Below, one piece after another: positions 53,397-63,894 of a stretch of 64,000 nt of DNA. Every line of letters starts with the position of its first letter. The first letter of the stretch is position 1. The DNA is taken from positions 85,161 to 149,160 of the forward strand of contig CAWCPV010000017.1 of the NCBI GenBank assembly GCA_963797555.1, in the 5' to 3' direction. The position numbers and the translations under genes are program-made. This stretch comes from an uncultured Gammaproteobacteria bacterium. Lineage in GTDB: Bacteria; Pseudomonadota; Gammaproteobacteria; CAWCPV01. The notes beneath the pieces were generated by a model. It saw only the letters and a program-made list of their open reading frames with translations, was not told the DNA's origin and did no database searches.

Positions 53397-53637
53397 ATTT
53401 TCACGGGATGGCATTTCGAGGCCGACAGGAGCCTTGAAGCCGGGATAGAAATCCTGTATAGATCTCCCGCAGTCGGATCTAACACTACAAGAACTGAGGT
53501 GAGACGCGGGAAGCTTTCTCACCAGATCGGCGCGACATCACACGAAGATCTGCCCGTCCTGCCGCTACGCTCGAGCTTCCGAGCGAGCTGCGAGGCACGG
53601 CGGAGGCGGCCCTGGGGGGCCTCCAAGGGAGGAAATC

Positions 53638-55175
53638 ATGGCGAGAAAGCTGGCCAAGAAGCCGGTCGCGGCAGCCGCTGCCGAAGAGCGGCCCGTCACC
53701 GTCGTTTACATCCACGGCATCGGGCCGAAGCCCGCCCCCAACGTCCTCAAGCGCCAGTGGGATCAGGCGCTGTTCGGGGTAGACATGGGCGCCCGCACGC
53801 GCATGGCGTACTGGGCCGACATCCGCCACCCGGCCACCGAGACCAAGAGCCTGGCCGCCGGCATCCCGGAGGCTTACCGGCCCCTTTCCGACGCGGAGCG
53901 GGTGGACGAGTCTCGGCGCCTCGCCCCCTATGGGAAGGACGCCGAGGCCTTCGCCCAGGCGCTCGCCAAACGGCTGCTGCAGAAACCGGCCGCTCCTGCA
54001 AGAGCCAAGGGAGTCGAAGCCAAGGTGCTGCCGGATTGATTCGCCGGCCGGTCACCGAGTGGCTCACCAAGACCTTCATACAGGACACCGCCGCCTACTT
54101 CTACGACGCCGAGCAGCGCGCCGCCATGCAGGAGCGGCTGCGCCGGCTGCTAATCCCTGAAGGCGGCCCGTATCTCGTGGTGGCCCACAGCCAGGGCACC
54201 CTCATCGCTTACGACGTGCTGCGCGCTCTGGAGAAAGAGGGTGTCCCGGTGCCGCTGCTCGTGACCCTGGGCTCTCCCCTCGGCATCGAGGAGGTCCAGG
54301 ACCACATCACCCGGCCCCTCGCCGTCCCGAAAAATGTCACGGACTGGAAGAACTTCGCCGACCTCCTGGACCCGGTGGCTCTCAACAAGGATCTCGAAAA
54401 CGACTTCGCCCCGAAGGGGCGGATCGAGGACCAATTGGTGGAGAACGGGGAGAGCTTCCCCTTCGCCGCGGGCTTCGACCCGCATTCCTCCACCGGCTAC
54501 CTCGAAACCCCCGAGGTCCGGGCGGCCGTGCGGGACCGCGTCCCGCCGACCGCCGCCGGGCCGCTCGCCTCCTTCGTGGTGGCGCGCAACGTCGCCGCCG
54601 ACATGGACCGAAGCTTCCAACGGCTCCCGGTGCTCATCGAGCTCGCCGCCGACCTGGAAGGGGGCACCCTGGCCGAGCGGCGCGACGCGTTGGTCGAGGA
54701 GCTGAACCAGCTCACCGGCAAGGCCGAGGAGGCCGCCATCAATCCCCTCACCCGTTATGTCGCCGCCTCCCTCACCCAGGAGGAGATCGTGCGCCTAGGG
54801 GCGCGGCACCAGAACCTCAACATCACCCGCATCTGGAAGAACAGCCGCAAGCGCGCCCTGCTCGATCAGTCCGGTCAGACCGTCCAGGCCTACACCGCCC
54901 AGCTCGGCTACGGCGCCACCGGCAAGGACATCGCCTGGGCGGTGCTCGATACCGGAGTTCGGGCCGAGCATCCCCGCTTCGCCACCTTCGGTAACGTCAA
55001 GGCGCAGTTCGACTGCACCGGCGTCGGCAAACCGGTCAAAGGCAAGGCGTTGGACAGCAACGGCCACGGCACCCACGTCGGCGGCATCATCGGCGGCAGC
55101 GGCGGCGAGGCACCCAATGCCCGCTACAAGGGCATGGCGCCCGAGGTCGGGCTGTCTCCTCCCAACAAGTACTAA
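53638..55175 (+). pseudogene. Alpha/beta-hydrolase + S8 subtilase fusion, frameshift near 54035, C-terminally truncated
   Basis: YIHGIG, AHSQG, TLGSPLG, DPVA and PHS (lipase-like fold), then VLDTGV and HGTHVGG; ends at GMAPEV before the catalytic Ser motif. Confidence 0.75.
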
Positions 55176-55734: not shown

Positions 55735-56204
55735 GTGCTGGAGCTGGACTACGCGAAAGGTAAGGTTGCAGTCTTTTCTTTCCGAGATATCGCGCCTCCA
55801 GGACGCGGAATTTCCCTACCCCGATAGTCTTACCGCGCTCGACACGCTTCGGCGTTTTTTTGAGGAGATACGGGACCGTCTCGAACGCAGTTCTGATAGC
55901 GAACCGGGGCTGGTACGCCCGCTATGCGCCGACGCGGTAAGGAAGCTCCAGCACTATCTACCGTTACTTGGCTTCCTCCTTCGCTCCACTAACGTCCGCA
56001 ATGCGTTCGAAGTGGTCGGTCCGCTGTTGACGCTGGCCGGTCAAGTTGCTCCCTTCGGGTATCTGGCCGCACGGGAAGCACACACGTCTCATTTTGTCAT
56101 CGGAATGGGAATACTCTCCTCTCGTCTATAGCAATATTCCGGTCTTGCCTGGTTTGTGCTCATAGGGCTTCCTGCCCATGATTCTGGCAACGCGTTGCTC
56201 GTTC
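55735..56204 (+). pseudogene. Hypothetical protein, frameshifted and cut by an IS end
   Basis: GGAGG-GTG start; reads VLELDYAKGK/LQSFLSEI...LGFLLRSTNVRNAFE.../RLILSSEWEYSP.../VLIGLPAHDSGNALLV up to the IS end. Confidence 0.55.
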
Positions 56205-56715
56205 GTAACCGTTCAGACCCTCCCACCAGTTGATCGATGCGTTAAGAGCGCGTCCAGCGCAGCAGAGCCGCTCGGCTTGTCGTACACTCCCGGCTCATGG
56301 ATCAAGAGCCCTCTATTCCGCAGGCGATCACGGCGAGCGGCCGGAGCTTTACCGAAGAGGAGATCTCCGCCATCGTCCGAATGGTGTCGATGTGCGTGGG
56401 CCTGAGTCGTTTTGAGCTGGCGCAGACCATCTGTGAGCTGCTGGGGTGGAGACGGGACAACGGAGCCCTGAAGTCCCGCGAGTGTCGGGATCTACTGGAG
56501 CGGTTGGAAGCTCGGGGGGATCTGGGGCTTCCCGCCAAGCGCACGGGCAGGCCCAAGGGGCGGCGCACCTGCACTGCGCAGACCGATCGGGGCGAACGCC
56601 GCGGCGAGATTGCCGGTGCGCTGCAGGAGGTGGCCCCGGTGGAGCTTCAGTTAGTGCGCCAGGCCGAGGGACGGGCATTGTGGCGCGAGCTTCTCGCGCG
56701 CTATCACTACTTGAG
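56205..56715 (+). mobile_element. Truncated IS-like element carrying a DUF4338 gene fragment (CDS from 56297)
   Basis: Begins GTAACCGTTCAG; the ORF GRSFTEEEI...LAQTICELLGWRR...LWRELLARYHYL is homologous to the N-terminal half of ORF 63022..63894 and is cut by the RAYT element. Confidence 0.65.
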
Positions 56716-56771
56716 CGGGGGCGTGGGGTCAGTTCTCTACGTTACAGCCTCTGTTCTTGTATTCTCGCTCC

Positions 56772-57704
56772 GTGGCCCGACCCTTGCGACTCGAATTCCC
56801 CGGCGCCGTCTATCATGTCACCGCCCGCGGTGATGGGCGCGAGCCGATCTTTCTGGACGACGTGGACCGCCAGAGCTTCCTTGATCGGCTCGGCCGGGAG
56901 GTGATCCAGCAGGGCTGGCAGCTTTATGCCTTTTGCCTGATGGGAAACCACTATCACCTGCTGATGGAGACGCCCGAGGCCAATCTTGCACGGGGCATGC
57001 GGCGGCTGAACGGTGTTTACACCCAGGCGTTCAATCGCCGCCACAAACGGGTGGGGCACGTCCTACAGGGGCGCTACAAGGCTATCCTGGTGGACCGGGA
57101 CGCCTATCTGCTGGAGCTTTGCCGCTACGTCGTGCTCAACCCGGTGCGTGCGGGTCTCGTCGGCGACCCTGCCGAGTGGCCCTGGAGCAGCTACACCGCC
57201 ACCGCGGGCAATGCGCCGGTCCTGGACTGGATGGCTGCTGATGTGGTGCTTGGCCTGTTCGAGTCCGATCGCGCTGGAACTCGTCGCTCCTACGTTCGAT
57301 TCGTGGCCCAGGGGATCGGTCGGCCTGCGCCGTGGCGGAACCTCGCGGGCCAGATCTTCCTCGGCGATCAGGCATTCCTCCAACGGATGCAGGGGTTGGC
57401 TGCGCAGCGCCCTGCCGCCAACGTGCCGCGGGCTCAACGGGCACCCGCACGCCCGAGTCGAGAACGCATTCTGCGAGCCGTGGCCGATGCCTACGGCGTA
57501 GCTCCAGAGCAGGTGCTGCGACGCTCCAGTGGACGCGTCTTCAGGGTGGCCGTATACCTGCTTCGCCGAGTCGGCAACCTTCCCTTGGCAGAGGTTGCGA
57601 AACAGGCTGGCGTTTCTGCCTCTCGCGTCTCCCAGATTCAGGCCGAGCTGGAGGCGACCGAGGACGAGGAGCGGATGACGGCGATCTTGAGGACCGTAAT
57701 CTGA
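56772..57704 (+). CDS. REP-associated tyrosine transposase (RAYT, IS200-like Y1) with C-terminal HTH
   Basis: YHVTARG, HYHLL (HUH), QGRYKAILV, YVVLNPVRAG and WSSY; flanked by ggggtcagttctc and an imperfect inverse copy. Confidence 0.9.
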   Translation: MARPLRLEFPGAVYHVTARGDGREPIFLDDVDRQSFLDRLGREVIQQGWQLYAFCLMGNHYHLLMETPEANLARGMRRLNGVYTQAFNRRHKRVGHVLQGRYKAILVDRDAYLLELCRYVVLNPVRAGLVGDPAEWPWSSYTATAGNAPVLDWMAADVVLGLFESDRAGTRRSYVRFVAQGIGRPAPWRNLAGQIFLGDQAFLQRMQGLAAQRPAANVPRAQRAPARPSRERILRAVADAYGVAPEQVLRRSSGRVFRVAVYLLRRVGNLPLAEVAKQAGVSASRVSQIQAELEATEDEERMTAILRTVI

Positions 57705-57781: not shown

Positions 57782-59242
57782 ATGCCGCCGAATAGCTTCA
57801 AGAGCGACGAAAGCTTTCTGCAGAAACTCGCGGTCGGCGCCGCGGGTACCAAGGCGACTCTCGCCCGACTCAAGGAGATAGGCTTCGAGCCGATCGAGCT
57901 GGAGCGCGGGTCTTCGGGTTTCAAGATATGGAAGCGTATCAAGATCAAGCGGGTACGGATGCCCGACATTCTCTGCCTGCGAAGCGGACTGAGGTTCGAG
58001 TCTCGGGGCAAGACCAAGCTTGAGATCTCGATGTCGCATTCCCGGTCGAACCCTGAAAGGGCGTGGGATGCGGGGCTTGCAGCCACTGACTATGTGGTGG
58101 TGGTCCTGTGCGAACAGGCCAGCGACTCCATAGTGGACTGGCGCCCGGCATCGCCGGTGCATTTCGTTCAGGTCAAGGGAATGCAGGACGCGTATCGGCG
58201 GGGACGGGTCAAGATACCCAGCCGAAGGGCGTCGAGGAGGGCTCGGAAATTCGGGTGATCTGGCCGTCGGCCGCTGCGAAGCAGCGGTCGGTCGTGGAAG
58301 AAGTCAGTCCCACCGCGATCCTCCTGCGCCCCCAAAGTGGCGGCCGCCCGCAACGGTGCCAGCTCGCGCGGAAGGGGCCGCTGGCTCCGCTATGCGAGGT
58401 GGGGCAGACCGTCCAACGGAACCAGATCGTGGCAGCGGTTACGCCCGTAGCGTTGAGCCTGAACACGCCGGCGGATGTGGGCGAGGCATACTTCGAGCAA
58501 CAGCTCAGAAGCACGGTTCTTACCGAGCGTTACGCCGCGGCCAAGGCGCTTCGCAACCGGGGCTTCACCCAGGCCGGTGCAGCGCTCAAAGCGCGTCTCG
58601 CCCAAGCCACCGAGAACATTTACGTCCGCCTGGAAGCGGCTGCGGCTTTGGCAGCCCACGCCGATGCCGACGGTTGGGGATTCCTGCAGCAGAGCCTCGA
58701 CAGTGAGTTCGACCAGGTCAAGCTCGAGACCGTGATCGTACTCTCGGAGGTCGACAAGCCTGAGAGCCAGGCCATGCTGATCGAAACTCTCGGAAATCGG
58801 AGTCGCCACGAAGAAATTCGAGCCGGGGCTGCGTGGGCACTGGGGCAGTTTCGGACTCCGTCCACCGCGAGGGCGCTCTCCGAAGCTCTGGACGAGATCA
58901 GTCTCGAAGTGAAGACCGAGGCGGCGCGTGCCCTGCTCCGGCTCGCTCCGGACCAAGTGCCGCTCCTTCTCGACCTTATCAAGTCCTCGCCCGTGGCGAA
59001 GAGAGACGGGCTTGCGTGGGTTCTGGCCCACCAAGGACAATTCGACCCGAAAGAGCTGCTCGCCGATGCTTCCGACGAAAATCTTCGACGCTGGGTGGCA
59101 TACAATCATCGGTTTTGGGAAGGACCGGTTCCTGGAAGCTGCGATCCGCGAGGTGGCAGCCGCCGATCCGCAGGTGTATTTCTCTGCAAGCGTGCTGTGG
59201 CAGCTACTGGCGAGTTGGATCAAAGACTTGAAGGAGTACTGA
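57782..59242 (+). CDS. Putative PD-(D/E)xK-like nuclease-HEAT-repeat protein (about 486 aa; frameshifts near 58215 and 59104)
   Basis: Joined from ORFs 57770, 58108 and 58928. N-terminal PDILC...FESRGK; HEAT-like units RYAAAKAL, RLEAAAALA, RAGAAWALG and KTEAARAL. Confidence 0.7.
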
Positions 59243-59244
59243 GG

Positions 59245-60277
59245 TTGCTGCCCGACAGGCGCGCGTTGTATCGAACAGAGCTGGGCGCGACCTACGTCGG
59301 CGATTCCCGCGCCCTGCTTGCCGGGCTGCCAGACAGCTCGATGGACCTGGTGATGACCTCCCCACCGTTCGCGCTTCGCCGGCAGAAGACCTACGGAAAC
59401 GTAGCCGAGACCGAGTACGTCGAGTGGCTGGTGCCATTTGCGCGGGACGTTCGCCGCGTCTTGAAGGACACCGGCAGCTTCGTGTTGGACCTGGGTGGGG
59501 CGTACCAGGCCGGCATGCCGGCGCGCTCGCTCTACAACTTCAGAGTGCTCATCGCGCTCTGCGACGAGGTGGGGTTCTTTCTCGCAGAGGACTTTTACTG
59601 GTTCAACCCGGCGAAGTTGCCCTCCCCGATCGAATGGGTCAACAAGCGGAAGATTCGGGCAAAGGACTCGGTGAACACGGTGTGGTGGTTCAGCAAGACG
59701 CCCGAGCCGAAGGCCGATGTGCGCAAGGTTCTGGCCCCGTACTCCGAGAGGATGAAGAAGCTCATCGCAGACCCGGACAGCTTCTACCAGCCCAGCAAGC
59801 GTCCTTCCGGCCACGACATCAGCAGGGGGTTCGGGACGGACAACGGCGGGGCCATCCCGCCAAATCTGCTGTCGATCCCGAACACGGACAGCAACTCCTT
59901 CTACCTTCGGATGTGCAAAAAGCACGGGCTCGATTGCCATCCCGCCCGGTTCCCGGAGGAGTTGCCCGCGTTTTTCATCAAGTTCTTGACCGAGCCTGGT
60001 GACCTCGTGGTCGATATCTTCGCGGGCTCGAACACCACCGGGGTCGCCGCGGAGCGCCTCGGCCGGCACTGGCTCTCCTTCGACTCGTCGTTGGAGTACC
60101 TTCGCGTCGGTGCTGCGGTTCATCGAGCGAGAGCCAGACACGACCATCGAGGAACTGCTCGCCAAGCTCCAAAACCCCGCGGCCGAGCACTTCATTCCTG
60201 CGGTGTGTCTGCCGACGCCGCCCCAACGACCGATCGAGCCGGCTGAGCCGACGCCAATGGATCTGTTCGGGCAATGA
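59245..60277 (+). CDS. Beta-class N4-cytosine DNA methyltransferase, M.PvuII-like (frameshift near 60100)
   Basis: LVMTSPPFAL, NPAKLPSPIEWVNKRKIR, HPARFP and DIFAGSNTTG; AAGGAG RBS plus TTG start 2 nt after the HEAT gene stop. Confidence 0.9.
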
Positions 60278-60540
60278 CGTTACCAGCATGGCCTGTCCCA
60301 TGTCTTCGGTTTCCTCCCGCGCTTCTCTCCTTGCGAGCCTGCGGCTACCGGTGGGGGGTGGAAGCGTTCATCGCCGGACTGCCCGAGAGCGCGCGGGGCG
60401 GCATAAGTGCCGTGCACTCCGCGAACAGATTTGGCGGCGTACCTTGGCCACCTGGGAACCGGCGCGGCGCCTCCCTAAACGTCGTTGTGGAAACGCCGGG
60501 ACGCGAATCTGTCCGGGGAACTGCGGCGAACACGTCTTCC

Positions 60541-60600: not shown

Positions 60601-60629
60601 TCCAGCATTATTGAGCTATGCTTGGGGGT

Positions 60630-61517
60630 ATGGCGAGACCCCTGCGGATTGAACTGGCCGGCGGGTTCTACCACGTCACTTCGCGCGGTGATCGGCGGGA
60701 AGCGATCTACCTCGATGACCACGACCGGGGGGAGTGGCTTGGCGTATTCGGCGAGGTCTGCGATCGATTCCATTGGCGCTGCCACGCCTATTGTGAGATG
60801 ACCAACCACTATCACGTCGTCGTGGAAACGCCGGACGCGAATCTGTCCAAGGGCATGCGGCAACTGAACGGCGTCTACACCCAACGGTTCAACCGTCGCC
60901 GCGGGCTCGCCGGACACCTCTTCCAGGGGCGGTTCAAGGCGATCCTAGTCGAACGCGACGCCTACCTGCTGGAGCTGGCACGCTATGTGGTCCTCAATCC
61001 GGTGCGCGCGGGCATGGTTCGAGATGTCTCGGCCTGGGAGTGGAGCAGCTACCAGGCAATGGTTGGTCTCGCGTCTTCTCCTCCCTGGTTAGAGACCGAC
61101 TGGGTACTCGGGCAGTTCGGCCAGGAACGCTCCCAGGCCCGAGTGCAGTACGCGGCCTTCGTCGGCGCTGGAGTGGCCGAGCCGAGCGTGTGGGAAGGGC
61201 TGCGCCACCAGATTTTCCTGGGCAGCGAGGCGTTCGCCGAGCGCTTCGCCGGCGCTGCCAAGAAACTGGAGGCACTGCGCGAAGTCCCCCGCGCGCAACG
61301 CAAACCCCTGGCCAAGCCACTCGCCGAGTTCGAGCGGGACTACGGGATTCGCCGCGAAGCCATGGCACGGGCGTTCCTCACGGGCGTTTACACCATGCAA
61401 GAGATCGCCGATCATTTCCACGTTCATTACGCGACGGTTAGCCGCGCGGTGCGTCGGCTTGAGGAGGGCTCGCGAGAGGTCCACGACATCTCCAAAACCG
61501 ACCGCGAGAATGCGTGA
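60630..61517 (+). CDS. REP-associated tyrosine transposase (second, diverged copy)
   Basis: YHVTSRG, NHYHVV, LFQGRFKAILVE, YVVLNPVRAG, WSSY and C-terminal HTH (EIADHFHVHYATVSR). Confidence 0.9.
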   Translation: MARPLRIELAGGFYHVTSRGDRREAIYLDDHDRGEWLGVFGEVCDRFHWRCHAYCEMTNHYHVVVETPDANLSKGMRQLNGVYTQRFNRRRGLAGHLFQGRFKAILVERDAYLLELARYVVLNPVRAGMVRDVSAWEWSSYQAMVGLASSPPWLETDWVLGQFGQERSQARVQYAAFVGAGVAEPSVWEGLRHQIFLGSEAFAERFAGAAKKLEALREVPRAQRKPLAKPLAEFERDYGIRREAMARAFLTGVYTMQEIADHFHVHYATVSRAVRRLEEGSREVHDISKTDRENA

Positions 61518-61690: not shown

Positions 61691-63025
61691 TTATACACAT
61701 CTCGGGCTCTGTGAGGCCCGTTGTGCGTCCATGGCGAGCACGAAGTCGCGGGTTCGCTGCAGCCCGATCCACAGGCTTTGCGGACCCGGGAAGCCGTCGC
61801 CCTTGCGATTGAGGAGGCCGCCGAAGCTCGCCACCATACGCACCATCGCATCGAGCGAGGGGGGTGTCTCAGGCGGGGGCTGGCGCTTGGTGACGATATA
61901 CACCGCGCGCCATTCCTCCTCGGCGAACACCACGTTGCAGGGCATCTGCGGGCAGTCGCGCCCGAGCAGGGTGAGGTAGAGCACCCGCCAGGCGATGATG
62001 AGGTAGAAGGCGAGCGCGGGCTCCAGGCGTTCGAGGGTCTCGAGCTGCAGCTTCTCGATGCGGCAGCCGCTTTTGAGGATCTTGAAGAACACCTCGATTT
62101 GCCACCGGCAGAGGTACCATTGGAGCTTCTCCAGGGCCTGCTCGGCGGTCTCGACGGGGAGGCTGGTGAGGAGCAGCCACTCGATGGGCTCCTCGCCCTG
62201 GGGCGGGTCCACCTCGCGGGCCAGCACGGCGCTCACCTCGATGTCCGCCAGGGTGCGGTCCGAGCGATGCGGGGCCTTGAAAGTGAGGCGTGCGACGCGC
62301 AGTTGCTGGTGGATGCGCCGCGCCGGACGCCTAGCGGTGGCGGGCAGGTCGAATTCGGCCTCGGCCAGCACCGGCGCGCTTGCGAGCCGGGCGCGCTCGG
62401 CGCGGATGAGCCACTCGGCGCAGGGCTGCGTGGCGGCGCGTTCCGCGAGCACCTCGTAGATGTCGGCCTCGCGGTCGGCGACATAGACCAACTGGGTCTC
62501 GGGCAGGGACTCGATGAGCTCCGAGACGCGTCGATAACCCTCCAGCCAGCGCAGGCTCTCTTTTTCCTCGATGGGCCGGCGGCCCTGCTCCTTGCCCAGA
62601 CTGCCCGCCTCGCGGGTCCAGCTCCATAGATCCAATAGCCCCAAGGGCACCCGCTCGGGGGTCACGGCGAGGGTGGGGTGCAGGTACAATCCACGGCGGG
62701 TCTCGTAGTTGAGCGGGCCCAGCCCGACGATGTCGTTCTTGCCGCTATAGTCCCCTTCCGTGGTGTCTTGGATGCACAGCACCACCGAGTATTCGCGCAT
62801 ACGCTGCTCGGTGCAGGCGTAATGGGGCTCGAGCACCGCCTGGGCGGTGACCTGGGGATGGTCGAACAGCCGATAAGCCGCCAAGGTCTCGGCCCAGCCG
62901 CCACAGGCGGTGGGAATGCTCTGCATGGGATGGGCTCCCAGCTTCTCCAGGGTGCGTCGCGCCCGGCGGTTGAGGCGCGCATCACCCAAGTCGATGGCGG
63001 CCAGCTCCTTGGCCAGGGCATTCAT
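61691..63025 (-). CDS. IS4-family transposase
   Basis: LGDARLNRR, IQDTTE, KESLRWL, ADREADIYE and YLCRWQIEVFFKILKSGC (YREK). Confidence 0.93.
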   Translation of the reverse strand: MNALAKELAAIDLGDARLNRRARRTLEKLGAHPMQSIPTACGGWAETLAAYRLFDHPQVTAQAVLEPHYACTEQRMREYSVVLCIQDTTEGDYSGKNDIVGLGPLNYETRRGLYLHPTLAVTPERVPLGLLDLWSWTREAGSLGKEQGRRPIEEKESLRWLEGYRRVSELIESLPETQLVYVADREADIYEVLAERAATQPCAEWLIRAERARLASAPVLAEAEFDLPATARRPARRIHQQLRVARLTFKAPHRSDRTLADIEVSAVLAREVDPPQGEEPIEWLLLTSLPVETAEQALEKLQWYLCRWQIEVFFKILKSGCRIEKLQLETLERLEPALAFYLIIAWRVLYLTLLGRDCPQMPCNVVFAEEEWRAVYIVTKRQPPPETPPSLDAMVRMVASFGGLLNRKGDGFPGPQSLWIGLQRTRDFVLAMDAQRASQSPRCV

Positions 63026-63894
63026 GCGGCTCCCCCGAGCGCCCGGCGAAAGCGGCCATCGAGCGGATACACATAGACATCCTTGATGGGCAGCGCCTCA
63101 CGGTCGAGCTTGCCCCGCCCGGTGGTCTGCCCCAGATGATGCCAGTTGGCCGCCCGGTAGCAGGTGCCCGCGAACCGGCCGGCCTCGACAAAGGTCTCCA
63201 GCAGCACCGGGCGTACCCCGTAGCGCTCTTCGAACTCGCCCGGCACCTGCCGCGCGGCCCGCCCGAGGACCTTGGAGGCCAGGTTCGCCACCCGCACCCA
63301 CGGCAGAATGAGAAACCGCGCATGGTTCAGCACCTGCCCCAGGTGCTGCGCACGGCTTGGCGCATCCCAGCCAATCCAGCGGTCGCGCACGCCCACCTTC
63401 CAGGCCGCGGCCCCGAAGCCCATGGCCCCCACCACACCCGCGTCCCAGCGAATCAGATAGCGCAGCTGGGCACCGGGCAGCGGCCGGTAGCCCAAATAAT
63501 GGTACCGGTCGATGAGCCCATTCCACAGCGCCGAGTCCGCCGGGTCAGCAACCGGCGCCAAGTGCAGACCCTGCAAATCCCGCACTGCGCCCACCACCGG
63601 TACCTCAGCGGGCCAATCTTGCGGCTCGCGCGACAGCCCCTTCCCATTGCCGTTACCGTTGCGCGGCGCCGGCAGCTCGATCCAGCCTGCCCGATGCAGC
63701 CGCAGCAGCCCGACTCGACAGCTCATCAGCTTGGGCCTACCGGCTGCATCGGTCCACCCCAGCACCCGACACACCCGCCGCGCCACCTCGGCTCGCACTC
63801 GGGGCTCCGCCAGCCGAGCCTCCCGCCGTATGCTCTCAAGCTCCCCCGCGCTCAGCACGCGCCCACCCAACCACCTCGGCAACCCCTTCTCCAT
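63022..63894 (-). CDS. DUF4338 (DruA-like) protein
   Basis: RYHYLGY, GAQLRY, RFLILPWV, NLASKVL, LETFVE and GTCYRAANW; 4-bp overlap with the transposase. Confidence 0.85.
   Translation of the reverse strand: MEKGLPRWLGGRVLSAGELESIRREARLAEPRVRAEVARRVCRVLGWTDAAGRPKLMSCRVGLLRLHRAGWIELPAPRNGNGNGKGLSREPQDWPAEVPVVGAVRDLQGLHLAPVADPADSALWNGLIDRYHYLGYRPLPGAQLRYLIRWDAGVVGAMGFGAAAWKVGVRDRWIGWDAPSRAQHLGQVLNHARFLILPWVRVANLASKVLGRAARQVPGEFEERYGVRPVLLETFVEAGRFAGTCYRAANWHHLGQTTGRGKLDREALPIKDVYVYPLDGRFRRALGGAA

Follow-up and report, generated by a model that had tools for sequence, protein, structure and literature searches.

In the PvuII restriction-modification (R-M) system, the endonuclease R.PvuII cuts CAG^CTG, the methyltransferase M.PvuII has the specificity CAGCTG and generates N4-methylcytosine, and its gene (M) is divergent from an operon of the controller and endonuclease genes (C-R). 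Controller proteins typically accompany restriction genes that need a delayed timing, as in the systems PvuII, AhdI, and Esp1396I. A publication that concerns the C/R overlap of PvuII (PMC2997769) is, as far as its treatment of this overlap goes, consistent with M being divergent from C-R. A cassette related to these systems was analyzed in an uncultured gammaproteobacterium (GCA_963797555.1, contig CAWCPV010000017.1). The window is the whole stretch of 64,000 nucleotides analyzed from this contig, and the cassette is located at positions 57782-60277 on the + strand. It contains a gene for an M.PvuII-like methyltransferase and, upstream of it, a gene for a protein with HEAT repeats that is likely to be the restriction endonuclease of a Type II R-M system. 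CAGCTG is probably also the site of this endonuclease, an assignment made with somewhat less confidence.

The cassette and its relatives resemble the PvuII system in several respects. The methyltransferase is a close homologue of M.PvuII; five related loci, that of the window not being among them, display the M gene divergent from a C-R operon; carriers of the family have fewer CAGCTG sites than expected; and both endonucleases have PD-(D/E)xK cores, which is a prediction for the family described here. In contrast to R.PvuII, the endonuclease of the family has no sequence match to PF09225 or to PvuII in the PDB and shows only a generic structural resemblance (Z 5.6-6.0), and it is three times longer, containing a barrel-sandwich domain and HEAT repeats in addition. 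The clade of the window also differs from the PvuII system by the absence of a C gene and by a tandem order of R followed by M.

The main part of the methyltransferase gene (59245..60103, + strand) encodes a protein that could be aligned without gaps to M.PvuII (PDB 1BOO) with residues 8-292 versus 6-290 (E = 1.2e-130, 438 bits), and it matched Pfam N6_N4_Mtase (PF01555, 3.6e-42) as well as PADLOC MTase_II PDLC03323, one specific Type II model (1.1e-147). The TSPPF motif is located at 59356-59370, and the catalytic and S-adenosylmethionine-binding motifs of the DNA amino-methyltransferase class are present. The earlier note on this DNA, made from the letters of the window, had described an M.PvuII-like methyltransferase with TSPPF, which agrees with this full-length match. 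Because of the degree of similarity, the same specificity as that of M.PvuII is the most economical inference, and the downstream gene most likely mediates methylation of N4 of a cytosine in CAGCTG, judging from its sequence.

The translation of the open reading frames (ORFs) of the window indicated that the two genes are spread over five frame segments. The endonuclease gene begins with the ATG at 57782 and is collinear, across three frames, with intact homologues of 484-491 amino acids (aa; about 485 aa). The closest genome copy, L076 from a deltaproteobacterial metagenome-assembled genome (MAG), served as reference, and its intact protein was aligned by tblastn. Segment 1 (57782..58215) encodes the predicted PD-(D/E)xK nuclease domain, residues 1 to about 145, with L076 residues 2-142 corresponding to 57794-58216 at 84% identity; the catalytic motif is found at 57962..58012, with P-D at 57962-57967 and E-S-R-G-K at 57998-58012 (pattern match 57947-58012). 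Segment 2 (58216..59103; L076 residues 143-439, 65% identity) covers the end of the nuclease domain with an invariant PKG.EEGSE...W, the barrel-sandwich beta domain, and most of the HEAT repeats, with a Pfam HEAT_2 match of this piece at about 58684-58935 (E = 2.7e-15). Segment 3 (59105..59242) contributes the last 45 residues with the conserved C-terminal helices and the predicted dimer interface (L076 residues 440-484 at 59105-59239, 71% identity), and the stop codon TGA at 59240-59242 is back in the first frame. The AAGGAG ribosome-binding site (RBS) of the methyltransferase gene (59230..59235) lies inside the K-E codons of the C-terminal K-E-Y-stop of the endonuclease gene, followed 9 nt later by the TTG start codon at 59245. 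The C-terminal tail of the methyltransferase (60104..60277) is in a shifted frame and ends with a stop codon at 60275-60277; the homologues in L015, L020, L029, and L058 continue with ASAFRF at this position.

The three sites where the frame changes are located at 58215..58216 (one base missing, CCC versus CCCC in related contigs, with the frames abutting at 58216), at 59104..59104 (one extra base, an A, with the frame changing between 59103 and 59105), and at 60100..60106 in the methyltransferase gene (two bases missing, where homologues read EYL-x-ASxxRF). The two-gene operon with the methyltransferase RBS in the last codons of the upstream gene, the three frameshifts, which were traced here by comparison with homologues and related contigs, and the partner of about 486 aa with a PD...ExR/K pattern, a beta-rich middle, and HEAT repeats had all been noticed from the sequence before, and each of them was recovered.

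Two other PvuII-like methyltransferase genes were observed in the same genome. A second copy is 5'-truncated (contig C13:109263-110003, locus L123), shares 90% nucleotide identity with 59478-60328 of the window, and adjoins an AcrB gene in six frame pieces and an IS66-family transposase gene. A third, intact one (C3:560988-561881; L122 4483-5448, minus strand) encodes a product about 52% identical to the partners of the family. It has no nuclease-HEAT gene beside it; the ORF upstream contains a HEPN_AbiU2 domain (7.6e-23), and unannotated ORFs downstream could encode another endonuclease.

Linkage to methyltransferase and controller genes, and avoidance of CAGCTG

A degenerate DNA pattern for the catalytic motif, verified on the window, was used to scan one genome per species. 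At least 120 loci were obtained, and 119 of 120 encoded the family as judged by a hidden Markov model (HMM) built from an alignment of 40 members, so that the pair in the window does not represent chance ORFs. The loci were distributed over Pseudomonadota, Planctomycetota, Actinomycetota, Acidobacteriota, Chlorobiota, Bacillota, Cyanobacteriota, Chloroflexota, and others, with one Bathyarchaeota MAG. Cultured carriers of the family include Bradyrhizobium sp. STM 3562, Streptomyces sp. WAC05374, and Pseudogemmobacter sonorensis. Near-identical family proteins occurred in different phyla, as expected for mobile R-M modules.

The neighbors were counted in 80 of these loci, those with 2-kb flanks, by tblastn over the whole loci. 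Linkage to a methyltransferase was near-obligate: an adjacent DNA methyltransferase gene was present in 74 of the 80 loci. It was PvuII-like and directly downstream on the same strand in 41 loci, mostly with a gap of 2-53 nt, PvuII-like but upstream and divergent in 5 loci (46 PvuII-like partners overall), and upstream and divergent for a large N6_N4 methyltransferase of 510-640 aa in 28 loci. The large methyltransferase matched PF01555 (1e-10 to 1e-19) and PADLOC MTase_II PDLC03312 (8.8e-99). Among the six loci without a methyltransferase gene, five are cut off by the contig end, within the gene or next to it, on the side that matters (L002, L042, L045, L055, and L066), and the sixth, L069, is an internally deleted remnant. 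Adjacency of homologues to PvuII-like methyltransferases, a check named in the earlier note, was thus found in 46 of the 80 loci, and adjacency to any methyltransferase in 74 of them.

A quick maximum-likelihood tree of 64 full-length members contained two main clades, one with PvuII-like partners only and the other with the large methyltransferase, with four divergent PvuII-like cases as basal branches of the latter clade. The type of methyltransferase followed the endonuclease tree, and the observed clustering was never reached when the labels were shuffled. The genes for endonuclease and methyltransferase are thus separate, adjacent, and co-inherited, as in Type II systems.

In 25 of the 33 divergent loci, the nuclease gene was preceded, at a distance of 2-83 nt and on its own strand, by the end of an ORF for an HTH_3 protein, as identified with an HMM of 17 such ORFs, and all 17 ORFs tested were matched by Pfam HTH_3. 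The eight divergent loci without a controller ORF form one actinobacterial subclade. The same HMM identified no controller ORF in the 41 tandem loci, and no C-protein-like ORF was present within 2 kb on either side of the cassette in the window. The best PDB relatives of the controller from Bradyrhizobium were C.AhdI (1.2e-15), C.BclI (3.9e-14), and entries of C.Esp1396I. The sister clade of that of the window consequently resembles the AhdI, BclI, and Esp1396I systems in a C gene that ends a few bases before the endonuclease gene and encodes a product matching C.AhdI and C.BclI; unlike these systems, the endonuclease belongs to another family, and the clade of the window has no C gene. Both arrangements, translationally coupled R and M in tandem and an M gene diverging from C-R, are those of ordinary Type II systems. 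The PvuII-type layout of M and C-R, with the controller gene just before the nuclease gene, argues for the family being restriction endonucleases. By this analogy, the five divergent PvuII-like loci would differ from PvuII only in the endonuclease, which makes them the strongest evidence for this function. The small endonuclease and the C protein that usually accompany such a methyltransferase had been reported as not visible in the window. Again, none was seen: no C-like ORF within 2 kb, and no PF09225 in the genome in a search without a positive control.

The avoidance of CAGCTG was evaluated with a maximal-order Markov expectation for the 64 palindromic hexamers in seven carriers and four controls without the family gene, which were picked for long contigs; the genome of the window (G000) was used as a whole and 100-400 kb of each of the others. 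In G000, 392 CAGCTG sites were found where 2176 were expected, a ratio of 0.18 and rank 1 of 64. The ratio was 0.10 (rank 1) in 400 kb of a betaproteobacterium (G041) and 0.07 (rank 1) in 400 kb of a deltaproteobacterium (G043), both with a PvuII-like partner. Of the carriers with a large methyltransferase, Bradyrhizobium (G044, 400 kb) had a ratio of 0.13 at rank 2, with an expected count of only 3.7 for the hexamer at rank 1, and a gammaproteobacterium (G051, 100 kb) had 0 of 22.4 expected sites, tied for the lowest ratio and the only hexamer with ratio 0 and an expectation above 1. These two cases are hints that the large methyltransferase protects the same site. In 200 kb each of the controls G018, G025, and G029, the ratios were 0.98 (rank 46), 0.70 (rank 17), and 1.06 (rank 51), respectively.

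Other genomes did not follow this pattern. The carrier Velamenicoccus (G042, 400 kb) was not depleted (0.96, rank 37). The carrier G045 (locus L038, 400 kb), from the actinobacterial subclade without a C gene, reached only 0.42 (rank 5), with CTGCAG as the most depleted hexamer at 0.13. The control G012 (200 kb) was depleted (0.23, rank 3) without a member of the family or a close PvuII-like methyltransferase, the best match being 33% identical. Either other systems act in G045 and G012, or the specificity differs within the family. In total, a ratio of 0.18 or below was present in five of seven carriers and none of four controls, a small sample in which kinship was ignored. The avoidance of CAGCTG is support, not proof, for CAGCTG being the target site, and it lends indirect support to a sequence-specific cleavage that is blocked by the cognate methylation.

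The probable endonuclease family and its predicted build

When the N-terminal 151 aa of the window protein were used as query, 304 clusters at 50% identity were retrieved at E <= 1e-3 and 237 at E <= 1e-10, and a full-length member retrieved 1476 clusters at 90% identity (E <= 1e-10). Most members have 485-520 aa, and the names given by the sources are only "HEAT repeat (domain-containing) protein," "PBS lyase HEAT-like repeat-containing protein," or "hypothetical protein." These names result from the C-terminal half, which strongly matches the PBS-lyase-type HEAT proteins (PF13646/PF03130; alphaRep, CpcE/F, NblB, and MTH187): the C-terminal approximately 250 aa matched alphaRep with 2.4e-62, and HEAT_2 was reached with up to 2.1e-26 in homologues. 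HEAT repeats are therefore assigned to the window piece (56.9 bits, cut-off 27.7) and to 10 of 10 homologues (37.9-92.5 bits). Unlike the family, the PBS-lyase-type proteins lack a nuclease domain and are not linked to DNA methyltransferases, and the matches of the family to NblB and CpcE of NCBIfam were far below the cut-offs (24-29 versus 300-330 bits).

In window pieces and intact members, Pfam recognized the HEAT repeats alone and no endonuclease family, and no endonuclease model of NCBIfam or PADLOC was matched. Neither a single sequence nor a 64-member profile covering the first 240 aa had a significant match among the PDB sequences, and PvuII was not matched by either of them at E <= 10. 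The R.PvuII family PF09225 was considered as a home for the endonuclease and rejected at the sequence level, with no Pfam match for any window piece (E <= 0.1) or for 10 homologues (E <= 0.01). Searches without a positive control found no PF09225 in the genome of the window (84.6% complete) and five other genomes, including four depleted carriers. HEAT-ARM_XIII of PADLOC was rejected as well: about 200 of 1972 profile positions were covered, with 15-35 bits, which is a resemblance at the level of the repeats and not a full-length match. A tblastn search of 72,556 plasmids and 50,697 phage records gave no match to an intact member. Longer, fused forms of the family were not found, which is weak evidence, and the N-terminal piece found no match among 40 same-class relatives, all of which were from other families, so that this result says little. 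No description of the family was found in the full-text literature, mostly from listings and abstracts. On the basis of its sequence, the upstream protein is a member of a large family that is not named as a nuclease in Pfam, NCBIfam, PADLOC, or the annotations of the sources, although REBASE may list predicted members.

Alignments of 40, 64, and 78 members revealed the invariant pattern K..F......G...ELER...W..K.KR.R.PD...C...G.R.E.R.K...S...R.W...D...PKG..EG.E....W. In PD...ExRxK, the P, D, E, and last K are invariant (D, E, and K being residues 59, 70, and 74 of L076), whereas the R is replaced by K in a few members. These invariant positions and additional acidic ones are maintained across clades that are only 25-30% identical overall.

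The first 240 aa were modeled with AlphaFold2 from a 64-sequence alignment with L076 as the first row (mean predicted local distance difference test [pLDDT] 88.1, predicted template modeling score [pTM] 0.87). The order of elements in the model is helix 6-29, strands 34-36, 60-62 (PD), 68-74 (ExRxK), 79-83, and 101-109, and helix 128-136, so that PD is at the start of one strand and ExRxK is on the next, as in a PD-(D/E)xK core. Foldseek against the PDB listed archaeal Hjc resolvases first (2wcw, probability 0.99, E = 3.6e-3, target TM 0.46-0.52). VIA-align produced Z values of 8.2 for I-Ssp6803I, 8.0 for Hjc, 7.8 for D212, 7.3 for NhoI, 6.5 for MspI, 6.0 and 5.6 for PvuII chains, and 5.5 for DpnI; a Z below 8 can reflect a common arrangement according to the tool's own note. 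PvuII thus scored lower than several unrelated PD-(D/E)xK nucleases. PDDEXK_16 and a DpnI domain (0.86 each) from the ESM Atlas are leads only. Because the list of matches consists uniformly of PD-(D/E)xK nucleases and the motif is invariant, the N terminus is predicted to adopt a PD-(D/E)xK nuclease fold. For a Type II endonuclease, the nuclease fold and the conserved catalytic residues are thus present at the level of a prediction. The best structural matches, Hjc, I-Ssp6803I, and D212, were covered for most of each target, with 12-16% identity in the structural alignments and no sequence similarity. In contrast to the family, they resolve junctions or act as homing or viral nucleases, have no methyltransferase partners, and dimerize via the nuclease core, whereas the interface predicted here is the HEAT end.

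Residues 159-216 resemble barrel-sandwich hybrid domains (biotinyl carriers, LytM, and RNA polymerase inserts) with Z up to 7.7 and a root mean square deviation of 1.4-2.0 A over 53-60 residues. A prediction of two copies of the full protein with ESMFold2 yielded an ipSAE of 0.68 versus 0.00 for the best control, with at least 87% of the contacts shared between runs and a pLDDT of 87-88. In the calibration of the tool, the mark used was attained by 20 of the 30 solved homodimers and by 1 of the 23 monomers, counts that apply only roughly here because the alignment was our own. The symmetric interface is built from residues 373-484, the conserved last helices, of which residues 431-484 bear on segment 3 of the window gene; residues 10, 44, and 113-115 add a few contacts. 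The model therefore predicts that two subunits pair symmetrically via their C-terminal HEAT helices, which would suit a palindromic target.

State of the window copy and its surroundings

Related-strain contigs with 90-99% identity to the stretch were obtained from four marsh-metagenome runs (X1-X4). They contain an extra C behind 58215 (X1, X2, and X3), lack base 59104 (X1), or contain an inserted CC behind 60106 (X1, X2, and X4). Each of these differences restores the frame, which means that all three sites are in frame in related strains. No contig with at least 99% identity across the three frameshift sites was found in the metagenome runs. At about 57726 and 60269, the related contigs depart from the sequence of the window, indicating different surroundings of the cassette there. 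Third codon positions of the ancestral frames account for 30 of 39 listed coding differences on both sides of the frameshifts (our count; 222 more are unlisted), and this bias indicates that the genes were under purifying selection until recently. One X1 contig joins 58010 to 58870 and skips 859 bases of the endonuclease gene, which could represent a related strain with an internally deleted R gene; this join is weakly supported, by one contig with 30 letters on the shorter side.

As assembled, the window copy can make neither of the two proteins, owing to two frameshifts in R and one in M. These shifts may result from a recent, real inactivation of the window copy, which is the reading we lean toward. 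Alternatively, they may be consensus errors of a long-read-type assembly, so that the organism has a working system, and this explanation retains a considerable chance, although below an even one. All three sites are changes of one or two bases in the length of short runs, nonsense substitutions are absent, the differences from the related contigs are mostly synonymous in the true frames, and the related strains are in frame, all of which would fit errors. The genome also has a background of broken genes: it is 84.6% complete in only 20 contigs, rpoB was not found in it, and three of nine otherwise whole AcrB paralogues carry one frameshift. However, these 3 frameshifts in about 27 kb amount to about 0.1 per kb, which predicts about 0.25 frameshift in 2.5 kb and not 3, and about 4 kb of flanking mobile genes are intact. 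IS (insertion sequence) copies in the genome differ by 0-2 gaps per 2.3 kb. Six AcrB paralogues are intact, and AcrB-type genes are shredded at C4:574684-577737 (at least 12 frame pieces) and C13:105716-108817 (6 pieces), one of them with in-frame stops; this may be local pseudogene decay or patches of poor assembly consensus. Such decayed loci and the truncated second methyltransferase copy indicate that loss of R-M modules does occur in this genome, and they speak for the real inactivation of the window copy rather than for errors.

The cassette is bracketed by two intact paralogues in the same orientation, which lie outside the system and mark a setting of mobile elements. Both encode an IS200-like Y1 transposase domain with a C-terminal helix-turn-helix (HTH), at 56757..57704 (+ strand; Pfam Y1_Tnp, 4.3e-09) and 60618..61517 (+ strand; Y1_Tnp, 7.3e-11). 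A multi-copy IS follows from 61682 to the contig end at 64000; the genome contains at least eight nearly complete copies of it that are 99.7-99.9% identical. A Tn5-like DDE transposase (61691-63025) and a 290-aa ORF (63022-63894), both on the minus strand, are encoded in it, and the ORF matches Pfam "Druantia protein DruA" (2.6e-44), an unexpected domain in an IS. A repeat of about 510 nt at 56204-56716, present at 15 other places in the genome with 98-100% identity, overlaps a truncated ORF (56297-56833) that resembles the N terminus of the DruA-domain ORF, and probably represents the end of this IS, interrupted by the Y1-transposase gene. At the edge of this transposase-rich region, an ORF at 53499-55175 appears truncated, as it combines a thioesterase-like region with no more than the first 83 of the 288 subtilase (Peptidase_S8) positions.

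Alternative functions and meaning of the family

The assignment of the upstream gene as the endonuclease of a CAGCTG-specific Type II system needs to consider the observations that weigh against it. Besides the undepleted carrier, the carrier in which CTGCAG is more depleted, the depleted control, the low number of genomes sampled on long contigs, and the frames that are broken in both window genes, the fold matches are in an ambiguous range (Z 6-8; Foldseek E of only 3.6e-3), and an R occupies the classical K position, with the invariant K following two residues further on. The dimer, available only as a model, does not explain how two nuclease cores meet at one site.

The atypical motif, ExRxK rather than ExK, and the middling fold scores would also be compatible with a protein that is not an active nuclease but a DNA-binding or regulatory partner of the methyltransferase, for instance a degenerate nuclease fold used for site binding. 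This is very improbable: P, D, E, K, and the acidic residues are invariant across clades with only 25-30% identity, as expected of a catalytic site, restriction genes are the typical companions of controller proteins, and strong avoidance of the site by carriers requires that it is cut. Also very improbable is a nuclease of the sensor-gated or abortive-infection type, whose HEAT solenoid would bind a phage protein or another trigger and release the nuclease while the methyltransferase is incidental or a safeguard. In its favor, HEAT/ARM solenoids do occur in candidate defence proteins, and a weak, partial PADLOC HEAT-ARM_XIII match was obtained (2.5e-08 for the window piece and 4.7e-10 for L076). 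Against it, this match is a generic repeat match, a methyltransferase gene is adjacent in 74 of 80 loci with a classical R-M controller directly upstream in 25 of 33 divergent ones, Pfam revealed no NTPase or other signaling domain in window pieces and homologues, the HEAT end is the predicted homodimer interface, and the CAGCTG depletion points to site-specific restriction.

The earlier note had proposed an atypical R-M system or a sensor-gated nuclease. Of this, the R-M module with an unusual endonuclease stands in view of the linkage and the predicted nuclease fold, for which PD-(D/E)xK nucleases filled the top structural matches, and no PADLOC endonuclease model was matched. The gating by a sensor was not borne out in an ordinary Type II context, and neither was the HEAT scaffold as a sensor of phage proteins, given the ordinary R-M or C-R context and a HEAT end predicted to form the homodimer interface.

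As a restriction endonuclease, the protein would have three parts. An N-terminal core of the PD-(D/E)xK type (E..PD..ExRxK) would account for about 150 aa, a barrel-sandwich beta domain for about 60 aa, and PBS-type HEAT repeats for about 250 aa, with the final helices of these repeats joining two subunits into a symmetric dimer suited to a palindromic site. This endonuclease would cleave incoming DNA at unmethylated CAGCTG, and the methyltransferase would protect the DNA of the host. The roles of the HEAT and beta domains may go further. It is conceivable, although rather unlikely, that CAGCTG is clamped and read by the barrel-sandwich domain together with the HEAT solenoid, and not read by the nuclease core. 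If true, this would be the first family of restriction enzymes on a helical-repeat scaffold serving both dimerization and DNA recognition, two unrelated classes of methyltransferases would provide protection at one and the same site against a single endonuclease family, and a non-homologous isoschizomer of PvuII would be common in environmental bacteria.

The functional kind is an already known one, that of an ordinary Type II R-M system with a methyltransferase of the M.PvuII group. New are the family and its build, the combination of a nuclease core and a barrel-sandwich domain with a HEAT solenoid predicted to dimerize the enzyme, which were missed by annotation and by the PADLOC libraries. 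In the genome studied here, the cassette was probably disabled recently and persists as a relic in a region rich in transposase genes. Restriction enzymes usually come to notice only by their resemblance to known ones, and since the family is missed by Pfam, NCBIfam, and PADLOC, its loci are scored as orphan methyltransferases instead of complete R-M systems. Recognition of the family, with at least 1476 clusters at 90% identity in many bacterial phyla and one archaeal MAG, would correct censuses of defence systems. The family is a candidate for a non-homologous counterpart of PvuII with an unusual domain build, and a tractable case for the role of a HEAT solenoid in a site-specific nuclease.

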